Origin: Candidatus Saccharimonadales bacterium | GTDB lineage: Bacteria > Patescibacteriota > Saccharimonadia > Saccharimonadales > Saccharimonadaceae | Length of the DNA stretch: 64,000 bases | Direction of reading: 5' to 3' | NCBI GenBank assembly: GCA_035697325.1 | Contig: DASSDB010000002.1 | Coordinates: 91,232 to 155,231 of the forward strand | In this document: one piece after another, positions 512 through 48,722 of the stretch | Position numbering within the stretch: the first letter of the stretch is position 1 | Layout: every line of letters starts with the position of its first letter | The notes under the pieces: generated by a model | The model's database searches: none | What the model saw: only the letters and a program-made list of their open reading frames with translations | Told to the model about the DNA's origin: nothing | Position numbers and translations under genes: made by a program

Positions 512-557
512 ATAAAAAGAAGGGCCGATGCCATCAAACGGATGATGGCATCGGCCG
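512..557 (-). terminator. Intrinsic terminator downstream of the 570-851 ORF
   Basis: 13-bp stem GGCCGATGCCATC (524-536) / GATGGCATCGGCC (545-557). On the minus strand it is followed by CUUCUUUUUAUGC. Confidence 0.65.
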
Positions 558-569
558 AGATGAGACGGC

Positions 570-851
570 TCAGGAGTAACGGCGAGCGATGTCGAGCTCT
601 CGCCGTTCTCGCTCCGGAAGCTCTTCTTCCGGTACCTCTCGAAATGCCAGCCCTCGTTCTATCAGGGCTTGTCGAAGGTTTTCCATCAGCACCTCGTCAG
701 TACTGCCGTAGTAACGTGTACTTTCGGGGTCATGGCCCTTGAGGTGATAAATGCGATCCCCCCTCCCCGTTTGCATCGGCGGAAGCGCTATCAGGACAGG
801 CTTCAGTACGTGGTCCGGAGTTTCGCCGTGCTCAAAAGCAAAGAAAAGCAA
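570..851 (-). CDS. Hypothetical protein, 93 aa, in a GC-rich patch (TTG start)
   Basis: ORF in track; I recognise no family. It has its own terminator. Line 601-660 is 36/60 GC by hand count. Upstream lies a separate 40-codon ORF (1044-922: MTEEQNTTTNSDDLDALRILLHTVKGLSAVSNTESVDSES). The region may be a decayed remnant. Confidence 0.35.
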   Translation of the reverse strand: MLFFAFEHGETPDHVLKPVLIALPPMQTGRGDRIYHLKGHDPESTRYYGSTDEVLMENLRQALIERGLAFREVPEEELPERERRELDIARRYS

Positions 852-1094
852 CTGACTTTTCCTTTCTCTTCTCGCAACAGAATTGCCGCAAGGATATCAT
901 CGCATTTTTCCCTTAAGAATACTAGCTTTCGGAGTCGACAGACTCGGTGTTTGATACGGCGCTTAAGCCTTTTACCGTGTGAAGCAGGATACGTAACGCA
1001 TCGAGATCGTCGCTGTTGGTAGTGGTGTTTTGTTCTTCGGTCATGTTTGTCTTTGCTTATTGTGATTGTCATATTAACATTAGCATTTTTACCA

Positions 1095-2714
1095 CTATTT
1101 GTCAATTAATGCTGTTTGCGTGGGTTGAGCAATTTTGGACGAAGAAAGGCCTGCTGCGACCAGTCCCTTAAATAACGAGTGTGCATTCCCCGGACGACTA
1201 CGAAATTCCGGATGTGCCTGAGTCGCAACAAAGTAACTATTACCCGGCGCCTCAACGTACTCTACTAACTTGCCATCAGGTGAAGTTCCGGAAACGATCA
1301 AACCCCCTCTCTTAATTTCAGCTAGAAATGTCTGATTTACTTCATAACGATGCCTATGCCGTTCGATCACTGTAGTTTTGCCATAAGCCTGCGCTACCTT
1401 TGAATTTGGCTGAAGCTTAGCCTCGTAATTACCCAGTCGAAGAGTACCACCTGTTGACTCTTTTCCAGCCTGACCCTCCATAATATACACGACGTCATGA
1501 TTGGTTGAAGCAAATTCTGTGCTATGAGCCGTTCGGAGTCCCGCCTTCCTGGCAGCAGCGATGACGGCAACCTGAAGACCAAGGCAAATCCCCAAATAAG
1601 GAACGTCGTTATCGAGCGCGTAGCGTGCTGCGGCGATTTTGCCATCTATACCTCGCGCACCAAAACCACCAGGTACAAGCAGTGCGTCAACGACAGCAAA
1701 GTCATCATCTGTCGCCGTTTCGGCATTAATCCATGCCACCCGTACTCGTGCCCCTTCTGCCCATCCTGCCGCCCGTAAAGCCTCAACTACGGAGAGATAG
1801 GTATCTTCGTTATCCATATACTTCGCCACCAACCCTACGGTCACCGGAGGGGATTCAATAGATTGCGCTTGTATAATTTTTTGCCACGCCGAAAAGTCAG
1901 GTTCTTTAGTAAAGCCCGAAAACTCCGAAAGAATTGCGCTAAGACCGCTTTTAGCTATTGCCATTGGTATGCGATATACCGTGTCGACATTTGGCATCAA
2001 CAAGACATTCTCCTCAGGCACCCCACCGAATAAGCTTATTTTAGCGGCCACGCCGGCCGGCGCAGGATCATCCGTACGCACCACGACACAATCTGGTGTG
2101 ATACCAAACCCTCTCAAATCGTTGAGTGCGTTTTGCGCAGGCTTGGTTTTAAACTCTTTACTCGTACGAATAAAGGGCACATACACTACATGAACAAACA
2201 AACAGTTTTGCCTACTAACACGCTGAGAAAATTCACGAATAGCTTCAATATAACTCAAAGCCTCGTAGTCGCCCACCGTTCCACCAATTTCAACGATGTG
2301 GATGTCGCTTCCCTCGCCCGCCTCCAGGATCGCCCGCTGAATTGCTCCCGTTAGATGTGGTACAAGCTGCACTGTTTTGCCACCTAACTTCCCTGCTCGT
2401 TCTTCCTCAATAAGGTCAAGTAGAAGACGGCCGGAAAGCGTTGCGTTTTTCTGAGTCAACTCCAGATCCAAAAAGCGCTCATAGTGACCAAGGTCAAGAT
2501 CCGTTTCCGCACCATCTTTGGTCACAAAACACTCTCCATGCTCCGCAGGATTCAAAAGGCCCGCATCTACATTGAGATACGGGTCACACTTTTGAATCGA
2601 GACGCGGGCACCTTTAGCCTGCAAGACGGCACCTATGCTGGCTGCGGTTATCCCTTTACCTACCCCCGAGAGTACACCCCCAGTTACAAATATATATTTT
2701 TCTTTTTGCCCCAT
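1095..2714 (-). CDS. pyrG: CTP synthase
   Basis: YIFVTGGVLSGVGKGITAASIG N-terminus, C-terminal glutamine amidotransferase domain (GICLGLQ, HRHRYEVN). The ATG at 2714 has GGAGAA 10 nt upstream; the track start at 2732 has no SD. Confidence 0.97.
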   Translation of the reverse strand: MGQKEKYIFVTGGVLSGVGKGITAASIGAVLQAKGARVSIQKCDPYLNVDAGLLNPAEHGECFVTKDGAETDLDLGHYERFLDLELTQKNATLSGRLLLDLIEEERAGKLGGKTVQLVPHLTGAIQRAILEAGEGSDIHIVEIGGTVGDYEALSYIEAIREFSQRVSRQNCLFVHVVYVPFIRTSKEFKTKPAQNALNDLRGFGITPDCVVVRTDDPAPAGVAAKISLFGGVPEENVLLMPNVDTVYRIPMAIAKSGLSAILSEFSGFTKEPDFSAWQKIIQAQSIESPPVTVGLVAKYMDNEDTYLSVVEALRAAGWAEGARVRVAWINAETATDDDFAVVDALLVPGGFGARGIDGKIAAARYALDNDVPYLGICLGLQVAVIAAARKAGLRTAHSTEFASTNHDVVYIMEGQAGKESTGGTLRLGNYEAKLQPNSKVAQAYGKTTVIERHRHRYEVNQTFLAEIKRGGLIVSGTSPDGKLVEYVEAPGNSYFVATQAHPEFRSRPGNAHSLFKGLVAAGLSSSKIAQPTQTALIDK

Positions 2715-2764
2715 GTTGATTGTTTTCTCCATGGGATTTCATTATAACATTAAAAAGTGATTAA

Positions 2765-2813
2765 ACGCTATATGTAGTGCATTGTAATCTTCACTATACC
2801 CTACATATGGTAT
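2765..2813 (-). promoter_or_regulatory. Tandem NrdR-box-like palindromes upstream of pyrG
   Basis: ACGCTATATGTAGTGC (2765-2780) and ACCCTACATATGGTAT (2798-2813), centres 33 bp apart. Both resemble the NrdR box consensus acaCwAtATaTwGtgt. The same two-box module is seen upstream of nrdA. Confidence 0.5.
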
Positions 2814-2823
2814 GTGTAGTGAT

Positions 2824-11016: not shown

Positions 11017-11032
11017 ACACTATATGTAGCGT
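11017..11032. promoter_or_regulatory. Third, isolated NrdR-box-like site
   Basis: ACACTATATGTAGCGT, directly abutting the stop codon of the 11035-12165 ORF and about 255 bp upstream of the nrdA start. Confidence 0.4.
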
Positions 11033-11034
11033 AT

Positions 11035-12165
11035 TTATTCAGGTTGTGACGGCTCTCGGGCTGCTGCGTCCTTCTTTAGTTCTCTCATTTGGACGCCCAT
11101 TTCTTTAAATGCCCCCGAGTCGCCCCCTGCCTCAAATCCACGATCGGGGTGGAGTTTTGATTGCACCTTGCGCTCTACTTTACCTAGCTGAGCACTGTTA
11201 AGCGACTCTATGTCAGAAGTTTCGTAAAGGTTCTTGGCAACCGCTCGAATTTCCTCAGCGGCCTTTGTTACGTTTCGCTGCTCATACTCTTTATATGCGT
11301 CCTTTTCAGCCTCATCCCGTGTCACTTTCTCGCGGTAGGTGCGGACTTCGTCACTTTGAGGAGTGGCAGTCTGTTTTACTTCCTCGTAGGATTCAGTTTT
11401 CGGTTCGTAGAAGTCGTAGGTAGAACTCTCAGTACGAGGAGTACGCTTTGTATATTCATCTGCCTCATGTATGGTCGCATCAAAATAACTGGACCAATTA
11501 AAGGTACCGATGGGTTCGTCTAATATCTTCTGCGTACGAATTCGATCATAAGAGCCGAGATCTTTTATGGCGAACCCACCAAGATTGCGGCGATAGCTGA
11601 TATCTTGCCGCCCTTGTTCACGTTCCGCTTGTCCCACTTCATCAAGAAGACGATTAGTTTTACCGTCGATAAGCGGCACACCAGCCGGAAGCTTTTCGCG
11701 CAGTTCTTTGATTTGCAAGTCAGAAAGTTCTTCATGGACCAAGATTGCTGACGGAATTTGCGTCTCGCCGTCTACATCCAAGTGGCTGCCGTCGTACAGT
11801 AATGTAAGGTTTGGTGAAAGCTCATCCTTATTAATCGTTTGTCGCATATCCATATCGATAGATGACATGAGACTACCCATACCAAGCTTTCCGTAACCTC
11901 GCTCGCGTATATTGGACTTACTTTCTCCCTTTTCTTCTTGAGCTTCTCGAGCCAAATGCGAGAGTCCGGCAAAAGATTCTTGAGTAATTGAATTACTGTT
12001 CACCTCTACCATGACTGTGTCACGAGGAATAACGGCAAAATTACCTATGCCCTCAGATCCTGCTAAAAGCGAATGACGCAAAGTGCCCGAAGCAAAGGGG
12101 CTTTCCGTGTCGTAAAATTGGTAGGCTTCTCGATTGGATATGTTTATTTTTTCGCTGATGGGCAT
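11035..12165 (-). CDS. Hypothetical protein with C-terminal J-domain-like segment
   Basis: 376 aa. The C-terminus KVERKVQSKLHPDRGFEAGGDSGAFKEMGVQMRELKK has the helix II-HPD-helix III layout of DnaJ J domains. The N-terminal ~300 aa are unrecognised. Confidence 0.6.
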   Translation of the reverse strand: MPISEKINISNREAYQFYDTESPFASGTLRHSLLAGSEGIGNFAVIPRDTVMVEVNSNSITQESFAGLSHLAREAQEEKGESKSNIRERGYGKLGMGSLMSSIDMDMRQTINKDELSPNLTLLYDGSHLDVDGETQIPSAILVHEELSDLQIKELREKLPAGVPLIDGKTNRLLDEVGQAEREQGRQDISYRRNLGGFAIKDLGSYDRIRTQKILDEPIGTFNWSSYFDATIHEADEYTKRTPRTESSTYDFYEPKTESYEEVKQTATPQSDEVRTYREKVTRDEAEKDAYKEYEQRNVTKAAEEIRAVAKNLYETSDIESLNSAQLGKVERKVQSKLHPDRGFEAGGDSGAFKEMGVQMRELKKDAAAREPSQPE

Positions 12166-12223
12166 TTATAATAATATAATCACAAAATACCGCTTATGTC
12201 AATATACAGTTGGTTGTTGGTAG

Positions 12224-12270
12224 TTTGGGTCCGTCGTTCGCTGACAAAAATCACGAACGACGGACCCAAA
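12224..12270 (-). terminator. Perfect 17-bp hairpin downstream of the 12276-12449 micro-ORF
   Basis: TTTGGGTCCGTCGTTCG (12224-12240) / CGAACGACGGACCCAAA (12254-12270), 13-nt loop. No clear U-tract on either strand. Confidence 0.45.
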
Positions 12271-12275
12271 TGGCG

Positions 12276-12449
12276 TCAGAGCAAGTCACCTCCACCGTCG
12301 TATCCTCGGCAGCCGTCCTCGAAGACCTCACCCGGTGTTTCCGGGGCAAAGATCGCCCCGCCACACCCGTCGAATGAGGCACCGCCACCCAGCTCGCTAC
12401 CGAGCAGGGCATCGCCTGTCCTGGCAGCCTCATCATGCGTGGGTTGCAT
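12276..12449 (-). CDS. Unlisted 57-aa acidic Gly-rich micro-ORF in a GC-rich patch
   Basis: Below the track cutoff. AAGGGAG sits 7 nt upstream of the ATG at 12449. Candidate promoter TTGATC-17-TATTAT further upstream. Reads MQPTHDEAARTGDALLGSELGGGASFDGCGGAIFAPETPGEVFEDGCRGYDGGGDLL, stop TGA. Line 12281-12340 is 37/60 GC. Confidence 0.4.
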   Translation of the reverse strand: MQPTHDEAARTGDALLGSELGGGASFDGCGGAIFAPETPGEVFEDGCRGYDGGGDLL

Positions 12450-12532
12450 AGAGATACTCCCTTGTAGAGTTGATAGTCGGCCGACAAACCAAAGAGATAA
12501 TATACCGAATTACGGTTGTGATCAATACTCTG

Positions 12533-13579
12533 CTACTGTGTGCGAGCTTTAATAAAATCAACCACTTTGCTCATCGCCTCTTCGCCGTCCTCTGTATCAA
12601 GATTGAATTGGTACTCGTGCGGAAGCTTCGGTTGATGATCGTCGGCAAAGAACGAAGTAGTTACCGGTACATGCTTATCACTCAGTTCTTTTGCAAACGG
12701 TTTGGATTGGTCGTTGGTGAGTGGATCGTTGTTACCTCCGCTTATAAAGGTGGGCGGAAATTGAGACGTCACGTGATAATACGGAGACATCTGGCGAATG
12801 ATTGGATCTGAATAGTCCTTTGTGCCAGAGTATGCCCAGAGGGCCGTATCATCGCCCCATCCTATTATTTTGGGAAGTTCCGGCGCTGGTTGCGTAAGGC
12901 CGAACATTTTGTATATACCACAGAAAAGAATCACTCCTTTGAGCTGCGATGGTTTTAGTGTCGGTTCGATTCCTACCTCGGCTGCATAAAACGGATTGGT
13001 CACGATGGCTGCCATTTGACTAGAGATCTGGGCGCCGGCTGAATCACCAGCGAGAAATACCTTGTTCATATCTGCATGAAAACGGCCTTGATTTTTGTCA
13101 AGAAAATCGTATGCCTCATTTAGCTGTTTTAGCGGAGTGGGATAGGTTTTTTCGGGTGCAAGGGTGTAGTTAGGCGCGATAACAGTAAAGCCCTTGGCAG
13201 CCAAGATTTTAAAGTAGGTAGCCCAATCGTCTTTGCCGCCAGAAATCCAGGCACCACCATGGGTCCATATGACCACCGGTAGCTGTTTGTCCGTATTGCC
13301 TATATTTGATGGAAAGTAAACATCGAGAAGCATTCCGGTAGAATCGTATTTTTCATTGGCAAGCCGTGTTACGGGTTGTTGGGGAGTGTGCTTTTCGAGA
13401 GCCTGCTTAGACTTGGCGCTGTCTAAATCGAACACGGTTCGGATAAGCAATGCACCTGGCCATGGTGTTACCTTGAAAAGTGTCATTACAATAATAATGA
13501 CCGCAAGTATGCTACCCGTTATCCACAGCAGCTTCTTATGACGTTTATAGAAAGGAACGCGTTTTTTTGATTTTGCCAT
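12533..13579 (-). CDS. Alpha/beta hydrolase (HSL-type esterase/lipase), membrane-anchored
   Basis: HGGAW oxyanion motif (VIWTHGGAWISGG) and GDSAGA nucleophile elbow. N-terminal TM helix after MAKSKKRVPFYKRHKK. The ATG at 13579 is preferred over the track start at 13657. Confidence 0.85.
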   Translation of the reverse strand: MAKSKKRVPFYKRHKKLLWITGSILAVIIIVMTLFKVTPWPGALLIRTVFDLDSAKSKQALEKHTPQQPVTRLANEKYDSTGMLLDVYFPSNIGNTDKQLPVVIWTHGGAWISGGKDDWATYFKILAAKGFTVIAPNYTLAPEKTYPTPLKQLNEAYDFLDKNQGRFHADMNKVFLAGDSAGAQISSQMAAIVTNPFYAAEVGIEPTLKPSQLKGVILFCGIYKMFGLTQPAPELPKIIGWGDDTALWAYSGTKDYSDPIIRQMSPYYHVTSQFPPTFISGGNNDPLTNDQSKPFAKELSDKHVPVTTSFFADDHQPKLPHEYQFNLDTEDGEEAMSKVVDFIKARTQ

Positions 13580-13794: not shown

Positions 13795-14583
13795 CTATTC
13801 TACCAGATTAAAATGACGTAGTGCATAGGTGAGGCCATCCGGCGTATCTGATACGGAAGGAACGACAAGATCCGCTTTGGCCTTAAGGAGCGGATCGGCA
13901 TTTCCCATGGCGACGGTTATGCCGCGCTGTCTCATAGCGTGGATGGCATCAAAGAGAGGGCCATCACCGGAGATATCATCTCCTATACCAACGGCCTTGC
14001 CATCGCTTAAACCGGCCAATTCAAACACTTTCGCAATTCCCGTTCCTTTATTAATTCCATTCACCGTTATTTGAAAACACCCCAAAGTCTCACTATTTTC
14101 ATAGCGCATAAAACGAGCCTGTACTTCGTTCATACTTTCAAACAACTCCTCGAGCCATGGCCCTTCTTCTAGAGGGTACACACCAAAGACAGAGGGCGAC
14201 TCCTCCGGATAATTAAAACGTGTATCGATACTGGCCGGATCTGTCTTGATGCGCGCCTCCAGAGTTGAAGTCGAAATTTCGATGCATTTTCTGCCGGCTT
14301 TACGCATGATTTCTGTTACTGTATCGCGCTCGAGCCAGTTTTTCCAGACTACTTCCTCGGTCGCAAGGTCAACGGCAGTTGCACCACTATCGAGGGAGCC
14401 AAGATCAACGAGACGGACACCATGCTGAGCAATTTTACGCATAAGGGGTAAGTTGCGAGCTGTCGCCGGAATAGACGGAACTTCGAGGGCATTTAGAGCC
14501 TCTTTTGAGGGAATCGTCTTTGTAAGATGGTCGTACGCCGTATTATCGACATCCCATGCTACCACATCAATACGCTCACTCAT
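13795..14583 (-). CDS. HAD-superfamily hydrolase (Cof/IIB-type phosphatase)
   Basis: DxD motif (VVAWDVDNTAYD) and C-terminal GIGDDISGDGPLF motif. Confidence 0.8.
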   Translation of the reverse strand: MSERIDVVAWDVDNTAYDHLTKTIPSKEALNALEVPSIPATARNLPLMRKIAQHGVRLVDLGSLDSGATAVDLATEEVVWKNWLERDTVTEIMRKAGRKCIEISTSTLEARIKTDPASIDTRFNYPEESPSVFGVYPLEEGPWLEELFESMNEVQARFMRYENSETLGCFQITVNGINKGTGIAKVFELAGLSDGKAVGIGDDISGDGPLFDAIHAMRQRGITVAMGNADPLLKAKADLVVPSVSDTPDGLTYALRHFNLVE

Positions 14584-15530
14584 TGCTCGCTACCCCGATA
14601 AACATTTGGAAGCAATCGGCGAACCACTTCGAGGTCTTTAGGGCGATGAAAACGAAGTTGTCCTTTATCTTCGGGGGCTTCTGAAAAAAGGCGATCGAGC
14701 GTCATTGGAAGACCTTTAGCATTTGTCACTTGCCTGTCGGCATCCGTAACATCAGGGGTGATGCGCCCCGTCGCCATATCGACGTACTGCGCGGCAGGGT
14801 GCTGCGTGTGCGCGCCAGCATCAGCGCGGAACACGGCATCAACATAGTGCTCGGCTCTATCTTTATACTGTTCAGGAAGCTCATTGCGAAGCATCGCAAG
14901 CTCACGCTCGGCATCGTACATTGCCTCTTCGAATGGCAGGTTTTTGTCGTGATATTTACGGATAGCCGTACCAACCATATCTCTTAAAGAAAGTTGCTCA
15001 ATAACTTGTTTTTCATCATCTGTTAGTACTTCGGTATGAGGTAGGATATTGCGTACAACTTGTAAATTGTACTTTTTTTGATTGCGACTATTACCGTCGA
15101 GAGCCACCCCATACGATTTGCCACCATCTTGAAATATAGTAGTGAACACACGAAGTATTCGATCGCGCGGTTCGGCCAGGTCTTGATCGAGCGTATGATT
15201 ATAAACATTTGTCACAGATTGATTATGCTCGCCAAGGCGGCGGGGGCGAGGTATTTTTATGTCACCAGCGAGCATCCATGCCATAAGAAGCGAGGTTGAG
15301 CCCAGCTTGATCATTTGGTTACCCGTTCTTTCGGCGGCTCGCTGTATATCGGCTTCGCGGGGCTGAGCCATATGCTCTTTAATAAAAGCATTGAATGTCT
15401 CCGGATCAACAAGCGGCTCGCCTTCACTAAGACGATGGCTGATTTCGCGAGTTATAGCCTCAGGAATTTCGCGCGGACCGGCCAGAATCTCTCTTGTCTG
15501 TTCCAAAGAGATGGAACGAGGTTTATTCAT
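14580..15530 (-). CDS. Hypothetical protein, 316 aa, GC-rich
   Basis: Long ORF with 4-nt overlap to the HAD gene and 8-nt overlap to the upstream ORF. No family recognised. Line 14761-14820 is 42/60 GC. Confidence 0.7.
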   Translation of the reverse strand: MNKPRSISLEQTREILAGPREIPEAITREISHRLSEGEPLVDPETFNAFIKEHMAQPREADIQRAAERTGNQMIKLGSTSLLMAWMLAGDIKIPRPRRLGEHNQSVTNVYNHTLDQDLAEPRDRILRVFTTIFQDGGKSYGVALDGNSRNQKKYNLQVVRNILPHTEVLTDDEKQVIEQLSLRDMVGTAIRKYHDKNLPFEEAMYDAERELAMLRNELPEQYKDRAEHYVDAVFRADAGAHTQHPAAQYVDMATGRITPDVTDADRQVTNAKGLPMTLDRLFSEAPEDKGQLRFHRPKDLEVVRRLLPNVYRGSEQ

Positions 15531-16182
15531 TGTTCACGCCCCTGTTATATACTTGCGTTCGTACGTTCGTAATAGAGGGAGCAAGCCGATCTTGATCCAT
15601 TTGCTCGGCAATGGCCAGGACATCCTCAAGGGCTCCATCGTTAAGTTCGGCAGCAGAGATATCAACAAACGTTCCTGGTTCATGATACATAACTGGATGT
15701 TTTGAATTTGGGAGATAGCGGATAGAAAAGAGGTCGGCTGCGGTTAAGCGAAGTGCTTGGCGCCCTGATTGCCTGAATAATGCCTCCACCTCTTCCATGG
15801 TGAATTCTTCGTTAGATTCATCATATTCACGACGACGACCAAGCGGGACTCGCGCTGCCGGGACATCTTCGGACCGGGGTACCCATAGTTCGGTCCGGCC
15901 AATACGATCAACGAGCTCCCCGTAGTCGTCCGCTTCAGGCGTGCCCCATGATTTACTTGGATCGAGACCAAATACCACTTCTTTTCGCGGTCCGAACCTC
16001 CCCTCACCTACAACTCCACCGATTATGGGCAGGTGTGGATCGGCAGTCTTTAACGCATGTCGAACAAGCCGGTCAAGCACTTTACCCCGATTAAGCTCTT
16101 GCCCCTCTGGTATTTCCAGTCGTGCTGAAAAAGTGTAATCAACCCCTTCACCAAGCGTATAAGAATGCTTTTCTGCCATCAA
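15523..16182 (-). CDS. Hypothetical protein, 219 aa, GC-rich
   Basis: First gene of the three-gene minus-strand operon. No family recognised. Line 15841-15900 is 41/60 GC. Confidence 0.7.
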   Translation of the reverse strand: MMAEKHSYTLGEGVDYTFSARLEIPEGQELNRGKVLDRLVRHALKTADPHLPIIGGVVGEGRFGPRKEVVFGLDPSKSWGTPEADDYGELVDRIGRTELWVPRSEDVPAARVPLGRRREYDESNEEFTMEEVEALFRQSGRQALRLTAADLFSIRYLPNSKHPVMYHEPGTFVDISAAELNDGALEDVLAIAEQMDQDRLAPSITNVRTQVYNRGVNNE

Positions 16183-19583: not shown

Positions 19584-20078
19584 GTGGGCATGGATATTCA
19601 ACCAACAAATCAGCAACCAATCAGTGATGACCAAGAGCTGGCCAAAGTACTTGCCGGTGTAACACAACAAGCCGATGAGGCAGCGACAACGCCTGCCCCT
19701 GATCCCGTGCCGGCGACCGAACCTCAGGAAGCTGATCAAGAAGTAGCGGAGACGCCCGCCCCAGCTGTGGCTCCAGAACCAGCCGCAGTGTCCTCTGCGC
19801 CTGCCGTAAGCCCCCTCCCTGCCGCGACAGGGCTGGACTCAATCAAACAAGATGCTTTAAGCGAGCTCCGACCGCTGGTCGACAAGCTTAATGTTGCTCC
19901 TGAAGAAAAGTTTGACACATATCTTCTTCTGATTCGCTCTACGGATGACCAATCTCTTATTGGTCCCGCCCACGAAGCCGCTCGAGCCATAACCGACGAG
20001 GCACGCCGCGCCCAAGCCCTGCTTGATATCATTAAAGAAATTGACTACCTGGCAGGCCCACAACAATCAGCCGCTTAA
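19584..20078 (+). CDS. Hypothetical Pro/Ala-rich protein
   Basis: GTG at 19584 or ATG at 19590, after GAGGTG. Low-complexity TPAPDPVPATEPQEADQEVAETPAPAVAPEPAAVSSAPAVSPLPAA followed by a helical C-terminus. Line 19741-19800 is 41/60 GC. Confidence 0.55.
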   Translation: MGMDIQPTNQQPISDDQELAKVLAGVTQQADEAATTPAPDPVPATEPQEADQEVAETPAPAVAPEPAAVSSAPAVSPLPAATGLDSIKQDALSELRPLVDKLNVAPEEKFDTYLLLIRSTDDQSLIGPAHEAARAITDEARRAQALLDIIKEIDYLAGPQQSAA

Positions 20079-20208
20079 GCTTCCTGAAGATAAAATGGCG
20101 TAGCAAAAAGGCCACATGAAAATCATATGGCCACCCCGGACGATCCGAGGATTTAGGGTGTTGCCCCCTTGGTATTGCTGCTAGCCTAGTTGCACGAGCT
20201 TTCGCCTA

Positions 20209-21267
20209 CTACGAGGTCACGCGACCCGGGCCAAATTTGGCGATGAGCGCGTCAGCCTTGGAGTCGGCGGTGCTTCGCTGAGCGAGTTGCTCCCTAAGCT
20301 GACTAATCTGCCCCTGCAACCGGTTAACCTCGCTCTGATGGGCGGCTTCGTTCTCGTGGATCTGCCGCTTCAGCTTTTCCTTGTCGCCGGCGAGTTCCTC
20401 GACGATCGCCACCAAAGACGCGATACGATCATTCGCAGGCGTGTCCGGCGCTGCCGCACTTGTCGGATTGTTGGTGGTCTCCTGGCGCGACGGAACTGGT
20501 GTCGGCACCGGTGCCTTGGCGCTTCCCTCGGTCAGCGATGCCGGTTTCGAGTCAACCTTCCTTGTCTCCACCGGACCGGCTTGAGTCGACCGGTACTCAC
20601 CGGCATCGTCGCAGGGGTGCTCCTCGATCACGCGCTTCAGCGCATCGACATCCAGCTCACGCGTTTCGACCGTCCACCACCAGAGGTGATTATCCTCATC
20701 CACTTTCATGTGGGAGCGAATGAGGCCCAGTCGCTTCAAGTAGTAGCGAACCTGCTTCTGCTCCACCCCAAGCATCCCCGTAGCTTTGAGAATGCCCTTG
20801 ACGTTGAGAGCGACCATGTTGCCCATACGACGAACCGTCGGCTTGGCCGCATACGTCTGAAGTTCCAGATACGCCAGCTGGCAGGTCTCGATCAGTGACT
20901 CCATTTCCGACTTGTCGTCCTTCACCACCGACGAGACAGTGAACAACAGCTTACGAACCTCTTCGACGCTCAGGAGAGTCGCCACCTCATCAGGAGTCAA
21001 ATCTCGAGAAAGCGAAATCGAGTAGGTTCTGGTGCGCTGTTCGTTCATGTCGCGGTTGATGCTGCCGTCCTTCTCCATCAGGAGGAGGGTGTTGCTGACG
21101 CAGGCACCGATCGCTTTGGTGTCCGGCAGCCCACAGAGCTCACGTAGCCGCGAAGCTATGCGACCTGTGGAATCCGATAGAACACCTCCTTTACGGTGCA
21201 ATGCGAGCTTGATCAGGTCGCAGAGTGCGGCCTGTTTCACCGAGTAGGAGTTGCTACCTTCGGTCAT
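20209..21267 (-). CDS. Hypothetical protein, 352 aa, GC-rich, C-terminal coiled coil
   Basis: Long ORF, SD GGAAGGAGAGGA upstream of the ATG. C-terminal heptad-like EKLKRQIHENEAAHQSEVNRLQGQISQLREQLAQ. No family recognised. Line 20461-20520 is 39/60 GC. Confidence 0.65.
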   Translation of the reverse strand: MTEGSNSYSVKQAALCDLIKLALHRKGGVLSDSTGRIASRLRELCGLPDTKAIGACVSNTLLLMEKDGSINRDMNEQRTRTYSISLSRDLTPDEVATLLSVEEVRKLLFTVSSVVKDDKSEMESLIETCQLAYLELQTYAAKPTVRRMGNMVALNVKGILKATGMLGVEQKQVRYYLKRLGLIRSHMKVDEDNHLWWWTVETRELDVDALKRVIEEHPCDDAGEYRSTQAGPVETRKVDSKPASLTEGSAKAPVPTPVPSRQETTNNPTSAAAPDTPANDRIASLVAIVEELAGDKEKLKRQIHENEAAHQSEVNRLQGQISQLREQLAQRSTADSKADALIAKFGPGRVTS

Positions 21268-21355
21268 GGTCCTCTCCTTCCTCTAGGGATCTGAACCAGT
21301 TAATATTATAACATCTAGGTGAACATCTGTAAATGTATGCTTTTATGCAGCATAT

Positions 21356-29614: not shown

Positions 29615-29695
29615 CTCCAAAAACTTTTCCATAATATTGTTACTAAAGCAATGTTATGTTTAAATTAGGCAGTACTCTCTCCCCTAGGAGGAACT

Positions 29696-30382
29696 GTGAG
29701 AAAAATACTCTGGTTCGTTGTACTGGGCGCAGCGGCCTTGGCACTTCTTGTATCGGGGTGTAGCGGCTCGCCCGTGCATCAATCACGCGCCGAGTACCAG
29801 GCCAAGCTCGATGCCAGTCCCATCCGTTTCGACGCCAGCACGCAGGTTATCGGTAAAGGTGGCCGGCTGTACATCAAGAAGGGCGCTTCAGCCACACAGA
29901 GCTGCCTGAAGCTCTGTGGCACAATCGAACCCAAGGATTCGGCCGATCCGCAGAGTGGGTTCAAAGTAGCGCTCCCCATCGGATTCAGAGTGGCAATGAA
30001 CACACCGCAAACCCTGGCCGACGGCCTAGTCACCGAACTGACGTACTGGAATCCACTCACCCAAGCGGAAGAAGGTGTTCCTTACGAGCGCGACCGGGCT
30101 ATCGAGGTGCCTTCGTCGCTCATCAGCAAGACAGTCAATGACCTGGCAGAGGTGAAGGAAGGCTTCATCCAAGGAGCCTATGTTCACCCCACGCACGATG
30201 GCAGCTGGGTAGTCGACCGCGATATCCCGCTCTGGCGTGAACCGTTAGGACTTGACTACGGCATGACCGTCACGGTGAGAATCACCGAGAACGATGGCAA
30301 GCCTTCCGTCTGTGTCCCTTCGGGTACAGTACTGAGTTCGACCGTGACGGATGACGGGATCCAGGTTTCGAGATCCTGCTAG
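29696..30382 (+). CDS. Putative lipoprotein, GC-rich cassette
   Basis: GTG start after GGAGG. Signal peptide with lipobox LLVSGC. No family recognised. Line 29761-29820 is 39/60 GC. Confidence 0.7.
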   Translation: MRKILWFVVLGAAALALLVSGCSGSPVHQSRAEYQAKLDASPIRFDASTQVIGKGGRLYIKKGASATQSCLKLCGTIEPKDSADPQSGFKVALPIGFRVAMNTPQTLADGLVTELTYWNPLTQAEEGVPYERDRAIEVPSSLISKTVNDLAEVKEGFIQGAYVHPTHDGSWVVDRDIPLWREPLGLDYGMTVTVRITENDGKPSVCVPSGTVLSSTVTDDGIQVSRSC

Positions 30383-30392
30383 CAGGGAGTAC

Positions 30393-30417
30393 GGGGCAGC
30401 GGTTCGTTCGCTGCCCC
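30393..30417. terminator. Hairpin between the lipoprotein gene and the convergent membrane-protein gene
   Basis: GGGGCAGCG / CGCTGCCCC, 7-nt loop, no strong U-tract. Confidence 0.5.
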
Positions 30418-30428
30418 ACTCTCAAAAC

Positions 30429-36363: not shown

Positions 36364-36653
36364 GTTTATTTTCGTAAGGTTACTTTATTAAATTAGCATA
36401 AGTTTTATATATTGTCAATTAGGTGTCTTCGATTACCTTATCCATTTACACTCTCCATACTGAAAAACGATCCCTTGGATATGGCTTCTACCAAGGAAGG
36501 GGTGAGGCATGTCCCAGCCGGAAATCTACGCCAAGCATATTCGAAGCGGATTCATCTTTTGGCATAACAACAAACACCACAGAGCCCGCCTAGACGCAAA
36601 GAAGTGCAGTCATCCCCAAGAGATCCCGCTAAAACTACTTTGGCGGGTTTTCT

Positions 36654-37112
36654 CTATTCATGGTGATACAGACCGCCGTGTGAGATTTCTTGCGCCCGAT
36701 AAAGCTGCTCTACAAGAAGCAGACGAACAAGTTGATGAGGGAAAACAAGAGGTGACAGTGACCACACGCTGTCCGCCCTCGCATGAACTGATGCATCAAC
36801 GCCATACGCGCCCCCTATAATGCACACGATTCGGCGAGAGGACTCCAAAGGCGCAAGAAGTAACCTGGAAAAGGCGACTGAATCAAGTAGTTTTCCTCGC
36901 TCATCTAATAGAATCACAAAATCATCGCCTTTAAGTGCTTCTAAGATCCTTGCCGATTCTTCACGGCGAGCTTCGTCTTTTTGGCGTGAGGAGTGGGGCA
37001 AGAGCAGCCACGAAGCCATGAAAGGTTTTCGCAACCGCGCCTCATATTTCTCAATACCATCTGCCACCCAGGCTTCGTGTTTTTTACCGATTGCAATGAT
37101 TTGAATGGGCAT
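36654..37112 (-). CDS. rlmH: 23S rRNA (pseudouridine1915-N3)-methyltransferase
   Basis: SPOUT-fold RlmH pattern: IQIIAIGKK...YEARL...IIGGAYGV. The start overlaps the HIT gene stop (TAATG). Confidence 0.9.
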   Translation of the reverse strand: MPIQIIAIGKKHEAWVADGIEKYEARLRKPFMASWLLLPHSSRQKDEARREESARILEALKGDDFVILLDERGKLLDSVAFSRLLLAPLESSRRIVCIIGGAYGVDASVHARADSVWSLSPLVFPHQLVRLLLVEQLYRAQEISHGGLYHHE

Positions 37113-40332: not shown

Positions 40333-40384
40333 ATAGTATTATGTTATTATATATACTGACCTAACCTACGTCACGGGAGACGGT

Positions 40385-40801
40385 ATGTCTTTGGATCTGA
40401 GAGTAGCCCCGTTCGAGTCCAACCCTCTCATGCAGTGGGCGCTCAAAACGGTAAAGGCGGCCATTCCGAGAGGATATGAAGCCGTATCACTCGTGGCCTA
40501 TCAAGATGATTTGCCGCGAGTCGACGCCACTGCTTATGCCCTCGACAGGGAGGGCAATGAAGTGGGTCGTTGCGCCCTCGTCCTTGAGGGCGAGGTATGG
40601 CAAGCTGCTTTCTTGCTGCTTTCCACTCAACTCATCATCGACAGGGTACTCAGGGATCGGTACGAGGACAGAAAGGTGGAGTACGAGGCTTACCAGGCTG
40701 AAGTGAGGCTCGCAAATGAGCCCTGGCAGGCAGCGAACGTCGACGTCAACTACATGCCAGATCGGGACCGGATAGGTATCGACTTGGTAATCTCGAGATA
40801 G
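40385..40801 (+). CDS. Hypothetical protein, 138 aa, GC-rich cassette
   Basis: ATG 4 nt after GGGAGACGG, own terminator. No family recognised. Line 40561-40620 is 36/60 GC. Confidence 0.55.
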   Translation: MSLDLRVAPFESNPLMQWALKTVKAAIPRGYEAVSLVAYQDDLPRVDATAYALDREGNEVGRCALVLEGEVWQAAFLLLSTQLIIDRVLRDRYEDRKVEYEAYQAEVRLANEPWQAANVDVNYMPDRDRIGIDLVISR

Positions 40802-40821
40802 CCCGAGAGTAGTACGGTCAC

Positions 40822-40868
40822 CCCTCGACGAAATGAACTGCTCTTTTAGTTCTTTCGTCGAGGGTTTC
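40822..40868 (+). terminator. Terminator of the 40385 cassette
   Basis: CCCTCGACGAAA / TTTCGTCGAGGG stem followed by TTTCAC. Confidence 0.6.
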
Positions 40869-40887
40869 ACCATATTTAGATGATGCA

Positions 40888-40930
40888 CCAAGAAAATAAG
40901 ATGATCCAAAAGATCATCTTATTTTCTTGG
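40888..40930. terminator. 19-bp perfect hairpin abutting the tRNA-Ser(TGA) 3' end
   Basis: CCAAGAAAATAAGATGATC-CAAAA-GATCATCTTATTTTCTTGG. It shares the outer 12 nt with the hairpin at 38120. Confidence 0.7.
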
Positions 40931-44930: not shown

Positions 44931-47651
44931 ATGGTGGAATTGCGAAAAGCCTTTCTGCCCGGTAGTATATCGGGACGGAAAATTCTTTTGTTCGCCACAA
45001 GTATGCTCGTGGCCGTCTTCGCATTGCTTGGCATTTCTCCCACTGCCTACGCAGCCGACGCTACCTGGCAGGGCAATTCTATAACCTATGCCCAAAAGCA
45101 ATATATTAAAACCGGAAATGCCGGCAGCAATGACCCTCGCGGTTTTGCCAAAGACACTCAAATATATGCCTACGTGGAGCCCATTGTATCGGGTTCTTCA
45201 AACCCAACCCAAAAAGCTCACCTAATCTATTTTGCTCCAGGTACAGACCCTACCAAGGCAACGACGGCATCGTATGTCGTGTACGATTACACGCCGCCAG
45301 ACAGCTACACCAATCCCTCAGGGGCGACGCAGATCACCCTTGATCCTCAACCGGCAAATGCCAACGAAAACACTACCTCTTGTGCGCTAGAAGGTATTGG
45401 CTGGATTGTGTGTCCAGTCACTAAATTTTTGGCCGGGGCCATGGACTGGATGTATGGCATTCTCGCCAGCTTCCTTACCGTGCGTCCAGTACAAACGAGC
45501 CAAGATAATTCACTTTTCCGCATTTGGGCCGTTATGCGAAACTTTGCTAACATCGTCTTCGTTATCGGCTTCCTCGTTATTATTTATTCGCAAATAACCA
45601 ACGCCGGTATCTCTAATTATGGTATAAAACGTTTGCTCCCGCGCCTTATCGCGGCGGCAATTTTGGTGAATTTATCATACTGGATATGCGCCATCGCGAT
45701 CGACGTCTCAAATATCTTAGGTAATTCCATACAGGAATTGTTTATCAGCCTGCGTAATGTATTGGTGGGCCGAGAAGGGAACAACTGGGACATTATCAGC
45801 TGGGAGAGTATCTCCAGTTTCATTCTTTCTGGCGGAACAGCGGCCGTACTTGCGGGTATCGGAGCAAATATTTTACTCGGCGGTACGATTACCGGTTCGA
45901 TCTTCATGCTCGTGCCGGTACTAGTAACGGTGCTCGTAGCCGTGTTGGTGGCACTGCTGGTTATGGCGCTTCGCCAAGCGCTTATTACTATACTAGTGAT
46001 CGTATCGCCGCTGGCATTCGTAGCGTACTTGCTACCAAATACCGAGAAATACTTTGAAAAGTGGCGCGAGCTCTTCATGACAATGCTGCTGCTTTTTCCG
46101 ATCTTTTCGGTTATTTTTGGTGGATCACAGCTGGCGGGTATGGCAATTATACAAAATGCCAATTCGATCAACCTCATTCTCCTTGGTATGGCCGTACAAG
46201 TTGCTCCAATTATTATTACGCCTTTACTTATTAAGTTCAGCGGATCACTACTTGGCCGCTTTGCCGGCATGGTCAACAACCCAAACAAGGGACTTATCGA
46301 CCGCACTCGCAACTGGGCAAAGGATCGTGCCGAAAACCAAAAAGCTCGCGTACTTGCTGGCACACCGCGTGCCGGCTGGCGTGGAGCCGCCACCAGGCGC
46401 TCGCAAAACATTGAAACCAAGCGCCGCAAGCGCGAGGGCTGGCGCGCAGCCAATACCGCGCTGGCTGATGCTGCGTGGGCTAATAGCGAAGAATACTCAA
46501 AAATTCACCAGGCCAACCAACGTGCCGCACTTTCTAAAGAAGCAGGTGAAACAGCCGCGCAAGTACGCTTTGAAACCGCCAAAACAACCAATGCCGCGTT
46601 GCAGCACATGGACGTTGAGGCGCGAGCTGCTAAATTGAATTTGGATGTTACCAAGGCTAAAGTAGACGCCAATTGGCAAGAATTGATGGCGGGTAAGAGA
46701 ACTAATGAAAACCTCCTCGACTTAGAGGCGCTGAATCCGGCAGAAGTTTCTCGTCGAGGTATTGGCAACTACCAGGCCTATCGCAACAATATGGTTGAAG
46801 CTATCAAACAAGCCTCGATCGATAATAACCTTGAAAAGCGCCGTGCCCACTCCGCTGAACATGTACGTCAAGAAGATATGACGAAGCTCATGCTTTCAGA
46901 CAACTTAATACGTGAACGTGCTAAGGGTATTGATCCACACGGTGCCGATACAGCCCTAGCAAACGCCGTTGCCGAAGATCGAACTGCCTTTGGTAAATCT
47001 GTGGAAGAAGCAAAGCATGTATTGAAGCACTTTAACGTCAGCGCCGAAAAGCGAGCTGACCTCTTAAGAGGTGAGACTATTCACGTAACCGATAGCTCGG
47101 GACACCCGCGTGACTTCAGCCTTAAGGATACGTTCATTACCGAGGCTGCAATTGAAATCCAGATGAAGGAAGGAAGCTTTAGACAGAGGGAAGATATTAT
47201 TGCCGAATCTGGTAAAGGCGGCAAGCTATATGCTCACCGAACCACTATTGGTGATGAAGCTAAGGCGAACAAGATCGGCGAAATGGCCGCTTACTTTGGT
47301 GGTTCCGCTATCGACCGTATTAAACAGGGTGAAATTAAGGGTAATGCTGGAATCGACCTGAACATTGCGCACACCATCCGTAGCGGTAAGCTCAAGGCCG
47401 CCCACCTTGCCGATATGGATTGGGAAGCCGTCCAGCGAGTGGTTAAGGTTGCACGAGCTAATGCACCTGCTGAATTCAATGCTGCACAGGTGGCCGAATA
47501 CGAGCGAAACCGCGCTCAACTGGGCACACTGGCGAAGGAAGCACTCACGAACACCAGCCTTCGTGGCCGCGTGGCAAGGAACTCTCTAGAACACTTACAA
47601 AACCTTATACAAGACTTTCCTCCACCTCCAACACCGCCTAATAACCCTTAG
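44931..47651 (+). CDS. VirB6/TrbL-like polytopic T4SS channel protein with ~430-aa hydrophilic C-terminal tail (paralog 1)
   Basis: Signal peptide, ectodomain of about 120 aa ending in CALEGIGWIVCPV, then six or more TM helices (LFRIWAVMRNFANIVFVIGFLVIIYSQ..., RLLPRLIAAAILVNLSYWICAIAIDVSN...). A charged helical tail ends in PPPPTPPNNP. Confidence 0.75.
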   Translation: MVELRKAFLPGSISGRKILLFATSMLVAVFALLGISPTAYAADATWQGNSITYAQKQYIKTGNAGSNDPRGFAKDTQIYAYVEPIVSGSSNPTQKAHLIYFAPGTDPTKATTASYVVYDYTPPDSYTNPSGATQITLDPQPANANENTTSCALEGIGWIVCPVTKFLAGAMDWMYGILASFLTVRPVQTSQDNSLFRIWAVMRNFANIVFVIGFLVIIYSQITNAGISNYGIKRLLPRLIAAAILVNLSYWICAIAIDVSNILGNSIQELFISLRNVLVGREGNNWDIISWESISSFILSGGTAAVLAGIGANILLGGTITGSIFMLVPVLVTVLVAVLVALLVMALRQALITILVIVSPLAFVAYLLPNTEKYFEKWRELFMTMLLLFPIFSVIFGGSQLAGMAIIQNANSINLILLGMAVQVAPIIITPLLIKFSGSLLGRFAGMVNNPNKGLIDRTRNWAKDRAENQKARVLAGTPRAGWRGAATRRSQNIETKRRKREGWRAANTALADAAWANSEEYSKIHQANQRAALSKEAGETAAQVRFETAKTTNAALQHMDVEARAAKLNLDVTKAKVDANWQELMAGKRTNENLLDLEALNPAEVSRRGIGNYQAYRNNMVEAIKQASIDNNLEKRRAHSAEHVRQEDMTKLMLSDNLIRERAKGIDPHGADTALANAVAEDRTAFGKSVEEAKHVLKHFNVSAEKRADLLRGETIHVTDSSGHPRDFSLKDTFITEAAIEIQMKEGSFRQREDIIAESGKGGKLYAHRTTIGDEAKANKIGEMAAYFGGSAIDRIKQGEIKGNAGIDLNIAHTIRSGKLKAAHLADMDWEAVQRVVKVARANAPAEFNAAQVAEYERNRAQLGTLAKEALTNTSLRGRVARNSLEHLQNLIQDFPPPPTPPNNP

Positions 47652-47665
47652 TGCAACTTAGTTTT

Positions 47666-47697
47666 ACGCCCCGGTCTGTTTTTACAGACCGGGGCGT
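47666..47697. terminator. Bidirectional terminator after VirB6-like paralog 1
   Basis: ACGCCCCGGTCTG-TTTTTA-CAGACCGGGGCGT, 13-bp perfect stem. Confidence 0.75.
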
Positions 47698-47701
47698 TTA
47701 C

Positions 47702-47959
47702 TTACTCGGAGGAGACGATAATAATCACTACGATCACGACAAGCGTGAGAATGATTCCCGCAACTCCGAGACCCTGAAAAACCTGGCCTGGGTCCATCGA
47801 GACCGCATCGTCATCCATAGCCGCACTGCCCAAAATCAGTGAGAGGACAGACAAGCCACCAAGGACAACGAGGGTCAGCAGAATCCAGATGAAAGCTCCT
47901 TCCTTTCGCCGCTTCGCCCGGTGAGGCGGGTCCGGCAAGTCAAACGGGTCGTCAGTCAC
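47702..47959 (-). CDS. Hypothetical two-TM membrane protein, GC-rich
   Basis: The GTG at 47959 is preceded by GGGAG (the track lists a TTG start at 48019). Reads TDDPFDLPDPPHRAKRRKEGAFIWILLTLVVLGGLSVLSLILG...GVAGIILTLVVIVVIIIVSSE. Confidence 0.45.
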   Translation of the reverse strand: MTDDPFDLPDPPHRAKRRKEGAFIWILLTLVVLGGLSVLSLILGSAAMDDDAVSMDPGQVFQGLGVAGIILTLVVIVVIIIVSSE

Positions 47960-48105
47960 AGGTCTTAGCTCCCTAGTGAATATAGGCACCTTCACCCTAA
48001 CATAATAAACTAGAGTCAAAATAAAAAACTAATTAAACTTGCATTTCACCCGATAAAGTATATAATTACTCTGTCCAATCAGATACGCAACAGAGGCGGT
48101 GAAGT

Positions 48106-48624
48106 ATGAGTTCTCTGGACGATTACTACGCGCGGCAAGATGGCGGTAAACAGGAGCGGGCCGACGATCTGCACATCCGGCAGTACAACCGCTGGGTCGA
48201 CATCGTGCTCGAGGCCGTGCGGGAGTTCGCCCGTGCGGCCCAGACCCGCCCGCCCGCAACCTGCGAGTGGGTGTACGAAAATGGGCAGCGCACGGCTTCG
48301 TGGGAGCTCCTCAAGGAATACGACGACACCTACCGCATCAACTTGATGCAGGACGGCCGACTCGTGTACGTCAAGGGGTCGTACTACTCACTGAAGCCGC
48401 CCCCAGAGGGTCACGTCACCAATGTGATCCATCTGCGCCACATCTCCCACCAGTCGGAAGAGCAGGCAGTGGGGGTGGGATGGAGTACGCTGAGCGATCT
48501 GTGCAGCAACATCGTCACCAGCGGTTACCTGCGATTCCACATGCCGTCGCCCAGCCATTTGCACGACGATCTCCTCACGCACTGGTCTCGTACTCACCCG
48601 GCCGACGATCAGTCGAAGCGGTAG
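48106..48624 (+). CDS. Hypothetical protein, 172 aa, GC-rich
   Basis: ATG after GAGGCGGTGAAG; followed by hairpin CCCGTCGCG/CGCGGCGGG (48643-48669). No family recognised. Line 48241-48300 is 41/60 GC. Confidence 0.55.
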   Translation: MSSLDDYYARQDGGKQERADDLHIRQYNRWVDIVLEAVREFARAAQTRPPATCEWVYENGQRTASWELLKEYDDTYRINLMQDGRLVYVKGSYYSLKPPPEGHVTNVIHLRHISHQSEEQAVGVGWSTLSDLCSNIVTSGYLRFHMPSPSHLHDDLLTHWSRTHPADDQSKR

Positions 48625-48722
48625 CACCCTGAATTGGACACCCGTCGCGTAGAAAAAACGCGGCGGGATTGTCCCTGAAGTTATTTCTCACCCCTGTATA
48701 CACTTTTGATGTTAATATACAT

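Follow-up and report, generated by a model that had tools for sequence, protein, structure and literature searches.

The GC-rich genes of the window

The stretch of DNA analysed here, referred to as the window, comprises 64,000 nt of a Candidatus Saccharimonadales metagenome-assembled genome (W), and the subject of this report is a set of eight small GC-rich genes that lie among its housekeeping genes. The gene model was taken from a list of open reading frames (ORFs) and checked against Pfam, for which 70 window ORFs were scanned. Housekeeping genes of the window include pyrG, nrdAB, an ABC transporter with an FtsX-type permease, pgi, groES/groEL and FemAB-family genes as well as Mur ligases, Sua5, TsaD, ValRS, recF and dnaN, and five tRNA genes were located (ARAGORN, Rfam), all outside the GC-rich patches. 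The window has a GC content of 0.479 (standard deviation of 200-nt windows 0.048), and the GC content at third codon positions (GC3) of 54 backbone genes has a median of 0.449, a standard deviation of 0.035 and a maximum of 0.527. The eight genes have GC3 values of 0.56-0.81, which is 3-10 standard deviations above the backbone. Their codon usage is moved towards G-ending as well as C-ending codons in all but a few amino acids, and their amino-acid usage is moved likewise (Arg 1.6-fold up; Lys, Ile, Asn and Phe at 0.6-0.7); these shifts fit a history in a GC-richer genome. GC rises precisely at the start codon and falls again precisely at the stop codon, and the GC3 of adjacent genes remains at 0.43-0.50.

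The original prediction for this DNA had described eight patches of raised GC, each holding ORFs that could not be assigned to a family. When patch GC was compared with same-length windows across the whole window, five of the eight fell within the top 5%. Outliers are 12224-12500 (GC 0.585, z 2.5), 19584-21300 (0.571, z 4.5), 29650-30420 (0.572, z 3.4) and 47652-48700 (0.553, z 3.0), and mildly raised are 40340-40870 (0.535, z 1.8) and 25900-26524 (0.526, z 1.6; just under the top 5%). Patch 540-1094 (0.503, z 0.8) is no outlier as drawn, only its inner gene at 570-851 being raised (0.557), and neither is patch 13795-16182 (0.493, z 0.8). The latter, on the minus strand, encodes a HAD-type hydrolase and two ORFans with GC3 of 0.45, 0.43 and 0.42; these genes are lineage-specific, of native composition, and form no GC-rich cassette. 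The ORF at 19584-20078 (plus strand), divergent from pgi, combines a GC content at first codon positions (GC1) of 0.75 with a GC3 of 0.45, and its high GC is explained by an Ala/Pro/Glu-rich N-terminal half that raises GC1. Its homologs adjoin pgi in 55 related loci, and it is a core Saccharimonadales gene, neither ORFan nor acquired. Together with the eight genes it makes up nine genes that cover 6.8% of the window and contain 83% of the 200-nt windows with a GC content of at least 0.58. The composition of the eight genes lies outside the range of resident genes, and that of patch 13795-16182 and of ORF 19584-20078 inside it.

The individual genes can be described from left to right. Gene c570 (570-851, minus strand; annotated VFH06_00870) encodes a 93-aa ORFan that forms a singleton cluster (GC 0.557, GC3 0.56), and a 14-bp hairpin lies 3' of it at about 523-556. 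Gene c12276 (12276-12449, minus strand; VFH06_00925) encodes a Gly/Cys-rich ORFan of 57 aa (GC 0.64, GC3 0.64) with the Shine-Dalgarno (SD) motif AAGGGAG and a 3' hairpin at about 12224-12270. A plus-strand ORF in the same patch was rejected as not coding-like; the real gene is c12276. In the c12276 product, MQPTHDEAARTGDALLGSELGGG followed by ASFDGCGG, an acidic, helix-like leader precedes a Gly-Gly motif, and the rest of the peptide contains three Cys residues. There is a loose resemblance to the precursor of a double-glycine bacteriocin or of a ribosomally synthesised and post-translationally modified peptide; no processing or export gene adjoins c12276. Gene c20209 (20209-21267, minus strand) lies directly 3' of groEL and encodes a 352-aa ORFan (GC 0.586, GC3 0.72) whose C-terminus is coiled-coil in appearance; a comparison with PDB sequences gave nothing useful. 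Gene c25941 (25941-26432, plus strand) encodes a 163-aa ORFan between convergent DDAH-like and Mur-ligase genes (GC3 0.60, GTG start, hairpin at about 26477-26520). Gene c29696 (29696-30382, plus strand) lies between the convergent Sua5 and DUF1361 genes and encodes a predicted lipoprotein of 228 aa with the lipobox LVSGC (GC3 0.66, GTG start, SD motif AGGAGG, hairpin at about 30385-30423); a structure model built from three sequences was unusable, with a predicted local distance difference test score (pLDDT) of 37.6.

The three remaining genes lie further to the right. Gene c40385 (40385-40801, plus strand) encodes a 138-aa ORFan between a pilin gene and tRNA-Ser (GC3 0.65, ATG start, SD motif GGGAGA) and is followed by an 18-bp terminator at about 40822-40864. 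The public call of the Prokaryotic Genome Annotation Pipeline at this place is on the opposite strand (VFH06_01100, 40487-40909, minus) and is probably wrong, because the plus-strand ORF has an SD motif, an ATG, a terminator and an ortholog of 67% identity in locus L088. Gene c47702 (47702-47959, minus strand) encodes an 85-aa protein with two predicted transmembrane helices (GC3 0.64, GTG start). It is divergent from c48106 and shares a bidirectional hairpin at 47666-47697 with a TrbL-like gene. Gene c48106 (48106-48624, plus strand) lies directly 3' of this TrbL/VirB6-like gene and encodes a 172-aa protein (GC 0.617, GC3 0.81); a TATAAT -10 box was found by inspection at 48061-48066, and a terminator lies at about 48642-48668.

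SD-like motifs stand 5' of all eight genes, with a GTG start in three and a TTG start in one, and a GC-rich hairpin of 10-17 bp lies 3' of seven. The promoter and SD regions look native and are AT-rich. No integrase or transposase was present among the Pfam matches of the window ORFs, no repeat family in a repeat scan of the window flanks the eight genes, and no target duplication is visible at the DDAH-like/Mur-ligase junction. The eight genes gave no credible match in Pfam, NCBIfam, PHROGs or PADLOC, their proteins gave none in tblastn searches of phage and plasmid collections, and no paralogy was found among them. No hexamer was notably enriched in them compared with synonymous-codon shuffles. 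RNA genes were absent from the patches (ARAGORN, Rfam), and a permissive Rfam scan of 12100-12600 was also empty.

These results bear out the predicted SD motifs, frequent GTG starts and private hairpins, and also the reported lack of integrase, transposase and terminal repeats. Most of the predicted outliers are real in z or in gene GC3, and in the 200-nt and GC3 profiles the eight genes exceed normal variance; patches 13795-16182 and, as drawn, 540-1094 do not. The eight genes indeed have no credible match in the family libraries, and the core gene 19584-20078 had been placed wrongly among unassignable ORFs. The prediction was also right in taking the organism for an epibiont. Two ORF picks were on the wrong strand or in the wrong frame: the second patch holds the minus-strand 57-aa ORF, and the eighth holds two divergent genes.

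Relatives and variable junctions

Related loci were available from sister genome A (L002-L004), from sister genome B (L001, L005, L006 and L088, L001 being 100% identical to part of L088) and from further contigs. A word-index search of 5.8 billion proteins covered c48106, c20209 and c29696 and returned only two or three relatives for each, on contigs with the same gene order as the window. Orthologs of c48106 in A and B are 75-77% identical. Those of c29696 stand between Sua5 and DUF1361 in A and B (protein identity 68% and 54%), and GC3 is 0.66 in W, 0.70 in A and 0.69 in B, with neighbours at about 0.45. A metagenome scan with the TrbL-like protein yielded an ortholog of c40385 in the same slot of L088 (67% identity, GC3 0.54). 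The same scan yielded an ortholog of c47702 in its slot in L088 (57% identity, GC3 0.48), and L102 has another (36% identity). The sole homolog found for c20209, in the more distant relative L007, is 31% identical, has a GC3 of 0.50 and also lies directly 3' of groEL; the gene is missing at the groEL position in A and B. For c25941, c570 and c12276 there was no ortholog in any locus reached. At least four genes, namely c29696, c40385, c47702 and c48106, which have same-position orthologs in A, B or L097, predate the split of the sister species; they have since stayed in their slots while evolving fast.

A set of 80 Saccharimonadales loci was gathered with the DDAH-like protein as query, and none of the eight genes was detectable in them. 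Their commonest gene order, which is probably ancestral, is pgi, the core gene 19584-20078, groEL/groES, FemAB, the DDAH-like gene and Mur ligase. Where the convergent genes 19584-20078 and groEL meet, 15 of 34 loci carry 300 bp or more of inserted DNA, as do 15 of 77 at the convergent DDAH-like/Mur-ligase junction; the inserted genes at both junctions are unrelated and nearly all singletons. Nothing occupies the DDAH-like/Mur-ligase slot in L003, and L005 has an unrelated 216-aa gene of high GC there. Distribution at these two otherwise conserved positions is therefore patchy. Elsewhere the same two junctions hold singletons whose GC3 deviates by up to +0.32 or down to -0.21; such inserts were seen in L005 (778-1416 and 6015-6665), L058 (4127-6600), L043 (9539-11618) and L082 (10886-13236). 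Across loci, 13% of rare genes deviate in GC3 upwards by more than 0.10 and 16% downwards by more than 0.10, compared with 0-1% of core genes. It follows from the slot and rare-gene data that accessory genes of mixed composition at operon-neutral junctions are the rule in Saccharimonadales. Peculiar to the clade of the window is that its outlier genes are all GC-rich.

The T4SS-like locus and the c48106 family

Genes c40385, c47702 and c48106, and with them patches 40340-40870 and 47652-48700, lie within a complete type IV secretion system (T4SS)-like locus at 39787-60491. The locus contains seven genes for VirB2-type pilins (Pfam T4SS_pilin), the TrbL/VirB6-like gene (44931-47651; TrbL_3 is recorded on its orthologs in L097 and L101) and a paralog of it (49795-51798) with which it shares a 191-nt repeat at 74% identity. 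Further genes encode PrgI/VirB3 (52891-53916; Pfam PrgI), a VirB4-like ATPase (54838-56739; Pfam P-loop_TraG/AAA_10/CagE_TrbE_VirB) and a lysozyme with an NlpC/P60 hydrolase (59301-60491; Pfam Phage_lysozyme2 and NLPC_P60). VirB4, VirB6/TrbL, VirB3/PrgI, VirB2 and a cell-wall hydrolase are thus found in one cluster. The T4SS of Patescibacteria has been described as a relative of the conjugation machinery of monoderms (MPF-FATA class) and is reported to be essential for epibiotic growth of Ca. Southlakia epibionticum (PMC12102498).

A profile of three c48106 orthologs was scored against 1.84 billion representative proteins and recovered a family with 33 members, 98-190 aa in length, besides a few spurious matches to long proteins. 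Family members share the motifs YN..V, PP...W[VI], SW and INLL.DGRLV. In L097, L099, L100 and L101, which are all the contexts with a T4SS gene, a family member lies directly 3' of a TrbL_3 gene; VirB2-type pilins lie 5' in three of these four, and PrgI and TraC/VirB4-like genes lie 3' in L097. Two family members each are present in L102 (553-1550) and L103 (403-2727), and L098 carries a further one. The c47702-like membrane gene of L102 is divergent from the family members, as in the window, and in W, L088 and L102 a c48106-type gene has a small membrane protein as its partner. Neighbour-joining trees group W, A, B and L097 together both for c48106 and for the TrbL-like protein. Family c48106 is thus an uncharacterised Saccharimonadia family that belongs to the T4SS-like locus; a role in secretion is suggested by gene position only.

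An AlphaFold2 model of c48106 from a 29-sequence alignment reached a pLDDT of 91.6 and a predicted template-modelling score of 0.84, and shows a 44-residue N-terminal helix, a five-stranded sheet and C-terminal helices. A Foldseek search of this model against PDB and BFVD gave nothing significant (best E = 0.08-0.1, template-modelling score <0.3). A GC-rich gene of 204 aa at the equivalent position in the distant relative L094 was considered and rejected as a c48106 homolog (hhalign probability 0.4%). In L099 (3929-4914), L002 (215-496) and L103, a second type of small gene, starting MGEAEDI or MDEAEDV, lies 5' of the family member, and the L099 copy is weakly linked to the c48106 family by profile search (E = 1e-4). 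The small-gene arrays of L102, L103, L099 and L002 are reminiscent of immunity or accessory gene arrays.

Origin of the genes

The explanation favoured here, with a probability of about 0.5, is that the eight genes are old acquisitions from a GC-richer gene pool, probably one within Saccharimonadia. Each gene is an autonomous unit composed of an AT-rich promoter region, an SD site, an ORF and, in seven cases, a terminator hairpin. Their sites are ones at which an insertion disrupts no operon, namely convergent 3' ends of core genes, a place next to a tRNA gene and positions inside the T4SS-like locus. Entry would have been by DNA uptake (natural transformation) followed by recombination anchored in the conserved flanking genes, a route suggested by composition alone, and the pool may most plausibly have been that of other Saccharimonadia. 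Sequence features suggest envelope or secretion-associated roles, with a predicted lipoprotein, a small membrane protein of two predicted helices and a T4SS-linked, presumably cytoplasmic protein of predicted novel fold.

The composition of the genes can be matched within the clade. Loci fetched from Saccharimonadales span 36-57% GC, and the pooled GC3 of the cassettes is 0.68, compared with 0.66 in core genes of Saccharimonadales with 55-57% GC. Codon frequencies of the cassettes correlate with those of the GC-rich Saccharimonadales core genes at r 0.90 and with those of the window backbone at 0.51. In Actinobacteria of 65-72% GC, GC3 exceeds 0.85. For TM7x, a published study reports no strong indication that genes were transferred from its Actinomyces host (PMC7427843). 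Taken together, the compositional match, the actinobacterial expectation and the TM7x report make GC-richer Saccharimonadia the most economical source. For c48106 in particular, any donor would have to be another member of the Saccharimonadia and not the host, because its family is tied to the T4SS-like locus of this group.

Several observations weigh against an origin in a GC-richer pool, one of them being the silent-site composition of c48106 set out in the next section. For none of the eight genes did the searches made reveal a donor copy. GC-rich Saccharimonadia members of the c48106 family are only 22-33% identical to c48106, and the c48106 tree broadly agrees with that of TrbL, as would be expected of vertical descent no less than of an ancient transfer. 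The orthologs are also non-uniform, those of c40385, c47702 and c20209 being far less GC-rich in relatives (0.54, 0.48 and 0.50). Finally, c570, c12276, c25941, c40385 and c47702 were looked up only by exact sequence or in local loci, so that evidence of absence is weaker for them.

Persistence of high GC3

The GC3 of c48106-family genes is 0.81 in W (neighbours 0.43-0.50), 0.71 in A (0.41-0.48), 0.74-0.76 in B (0.46-0.54) and 0.72 in L097 (0.39-0.51). It is 0.58 in L099 (neighbours about 0.45) and 0.37 in L101 (about 0.38), and in L100, L098 and L103, contigs of 54-57% GC, it is 0.64-0.75, with neighbours similar; the family members of L102 are likewise near the remainder of their contig in GC3. 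At four-fold degenerate sites of the backbone, the residual correlation of GC/AT states is 0.08-0.13 for pairs among W, A and B, and 0.11-0.15 for pairs among W, B and L097 (bootstrap upper bound 0.22). If a two-state model is applied, about 0.36 (no more than 0.47) of an ancestral deviation survives in each lineage, so that even an ancestor with 100% GC at four-fold sites (GC4) could have a present-day value of no more than 0.65 (0.71 with the upper bound). The GC4 of c48106 is 0.89, 0.76 and 0.78 in W, B and L097 (n = 37 sites), above this neutral ceiling, and GC3 over all third positions is 0.72-0.81 in the same three. Gene c29696 (0.62-0.71) sits at the limit of neutral decay.

Third-position identity between orthologs is as low as in neighbour genes; with a steady GC3 this means that silent sites turn over while composition is kept. 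Polarised changes in c48106 on the W and A branches number 15 GC-to-AT and 4 AT-to-GC, a small count obtained by a method that near-saturated GC-rich outgroups bias. The evidence on amelioration is mixed, with c48106 above the ceiling, c29696 at it, and c40385, c47702 and c20209 lower in relatives, which would fit amelioration. It is concluded that a single old transfer followed by neutral decay fails to explain the GC3 of c48106. Either this GC3 is maintained by a gene-specific force, or the allele has been repeatedly replaced from a GC-rich pool; no member of such a pool was found for c48106 in the searches made. That in this fast-evolving family of predicted novel fold a stationary GC3 of about 0.75 is held in a 48% GC genome, beyond saturation of neighbouring silent sites, by a strongly local GC-favouring process is a doubtful proposition and is offered tentatively. 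Selection on silent sites could be such a process, and so could extreme biased gene conversion in genes that experience diversifying selection. If the proposition were true, and without re-import, compositional outliers would mark the fastest-evolving host-interface genes and not foreign DNA.

Alternative explanations

The alternative that survives best, possible although unlikely, is that of native genes with no history of transfer, whose GC-rich silent sites were created and are maintained by a gene-specific force (synonymous selection, or GC-biased gene conversion at loci that often recombine). Such a history accommodates a c48106 family that is native to the T4SS-like locus with a tree roughly following that of TrbL, and the GC3 series (0.37 for L101, 0.58 for L099, 0.71-0.81 across W, A, B and L097) would be consistent with a change on the branch leading to the last group. 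It also accounts for values above the neutral-decay ceiling of 0.65-0.71 in near-saturated lineages, and for third positions that turn over as in neighbour genes with composition kept. However, GroEL, GroES, HSP20 and pilin genes have ordinary GC3 (0.35-0.50), which makes expression-linked codon bias unlikely, and the mRNAs of c48106 and c29696 fold no more strongly than shuffled sequences (z = -1.3 and -1.4). In c40385 the folding z is -5.2, largely due to its 18-bp terminator. A GC step exactly at start and stop codons would not be expected of recombination tracts, amino-acid usage is shifted too, and the polarised changes run from GC to AT, although their count is small and the method biased that way.

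A further alternative is repeated recent acquisition of single genes from the high-GC host of the epibiont, for example an actinobacterium. Repeated acquisition from a high-GC donor, which could be the host, was the reading of the original prediction, and on that view the genes were candidates for host interaction. The atypical GC-rich composition, the occurrence of ORFans at variable junctions and the lack of orthologs of c570, c12276 and c25941 in the loci examined would all suit it, and a lipoprotein and a small membrane protein could plausibly face a host. It is nevertheless improbable. Every homolog that could be placed in genomic context belongs to a Saccharimonadia-type locus, five of the eight genes are common in place to related genomes (sister genomes for four of them and a remoter relative for the fifth), and c48106 belongs to a Saccharimonadia-specific family. 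The GC3 range of 0.56-0.81 matches Saccharimonadales of 55-57% GC and lies below the actinobacterial values given above, the promoter and SD regions are native-looking and AT-rich with a GC step that ends at the ORF ends, and the TM7x work points the same way. In the searches made with c20209, c29696 and c48106, no match linked to a non-Saccharimonadia genome was obtained among the 5.8 billion and 1.84 billion proteins.

Of the earlier claim of repeated acquisition from a high-GC donor, the part that stands is that of outlying, clade-restricted, self-contained units; most are not recent, and no donor copy was found in the searches made. Homologs whose contexts, where visible, are Saccharimonadia-type only argue against the host as donor, as does a c48106 family that belongs to the T4SS-like locus of the epibiont itself. 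The protein searches that had been proposed returned, for c20209, c29696 and c48106, relatives in syntenic Saccharimonadia-type contigs only and no donor lineage. Presence and absence per site gave a divided answer, in that the slots are variable and five of the eight genes have same-position orthologs. An artefact is hardly credible, whether chimeras of assembly or binning or RNA genes and GC-rich non-coding DNA mistaken for ORFs, even though the source is a metagenome-assembled genome, GC-rich DNA yields long ORFs in several frames and the strand of the seventh patch is disputed by the public annotation. Assemblies made independently from other samples (L001-L006, L088, L097) have the same genes at matching sites, GC is concentrated at the third codon position of one frame, the c48106 family yields a confident model, and Rfam and tRNA scans of the patches were empty.

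GC-rich ORFans of an epibiont are easily misread as host-derived, and here synteny and family membership argue otherwise; composition alone should therefore not be used to call host-to-epibiont transfer in genomes of the candidate phyla radiation. Two results go beyond the earlier finding, namely the undecayed GC3 of c48106 and the conserved position of its family together with a novel predicted fold, both drawn from only a few genomes. The former could be explained by selection, by biased gene conversion or by repeated replacement. The c48106 family and its two-helix membrane partner are candidates for T4SS accessory, substrate or immunity functions.

Other features of the window

An 18-bp palindrome, ACRCTATATGTAGYGYAT, has five matches in the window compared with 0.21 expected by chance, and it resembles an NrdR box. 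Two boxes 31 bp apart (2765-2782 and 2796-2813) lie 5' of pyrG, another lies 5' of nrdA/nrdB (11017-11034), and one at 48723-48740 lies, unexpectedly, 5' of the T4SS-locus gene 48780-49778. A SPOUT methyltransferase gene on the minus strand (36654-37112), conserved in L003 and L005, is overlapped by the plus-strand ORFs 36509-36820 and 36820-37104; the methyltransferase is the real gene and the two ORFs are spurious. The right-hand end of the window carries recF and dnaN in minus orientation (61761-63909), and the replication origin and dnaA are probably located just past position 64000.

Comparison with known systems

The eight genes can be compared with laterally acquired ORFans or "genomic islets", whose amelioration was reportedly modelled by Lawrence and Ochman. 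Both are short lineage-restricted genes with deviant GC3 and codon usage that lie between core genes at variable junctions. Bacterial ORFans are usually AT-rich, whereas the eight genes are GC-rich, are accompanied by no mobility genes or flanking repeats, and in several cases are old and shared with sister species. Unlike ameliorating islets, c48106 has not moved in GC3 to the genome value despite near-saturated silent sites. A likeness to arrays of integron or site-specific cassettes lies in single promoter-to-terminator genes of function not assigned, here placed singly; these arrays differ in that the window has no integrase, attC-like repeat or array, and its 3' hairpins are mutually different and resemble ordinary terminators.

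GC-biased gene conversion, said to have been described in recombining bacterial genes by Lassalle et al. in 2015, likewise raises GC3 persistently in particular genes of one genome. The effect in the window (+0.2 to +0.36 GC3, with sharp ORF edges) is much larger and more local than the effects reportedly described. The locus at 39787-60491 agrees with the MPF-FATA-class T4SS of Patescibacteria (PMC12102498) in encoding pilins, VirB6/TrbL, PrgI/VirB3, a VirB4-like ATPase and a cell-wall hydrolase. The c48106 family has no Pfam-A match in the scan and no structural relative in PDB or BFVD, which sets it apart from the components of that system, and yet its position after the TrbL-like gene is kept in the window and in four related genomes.

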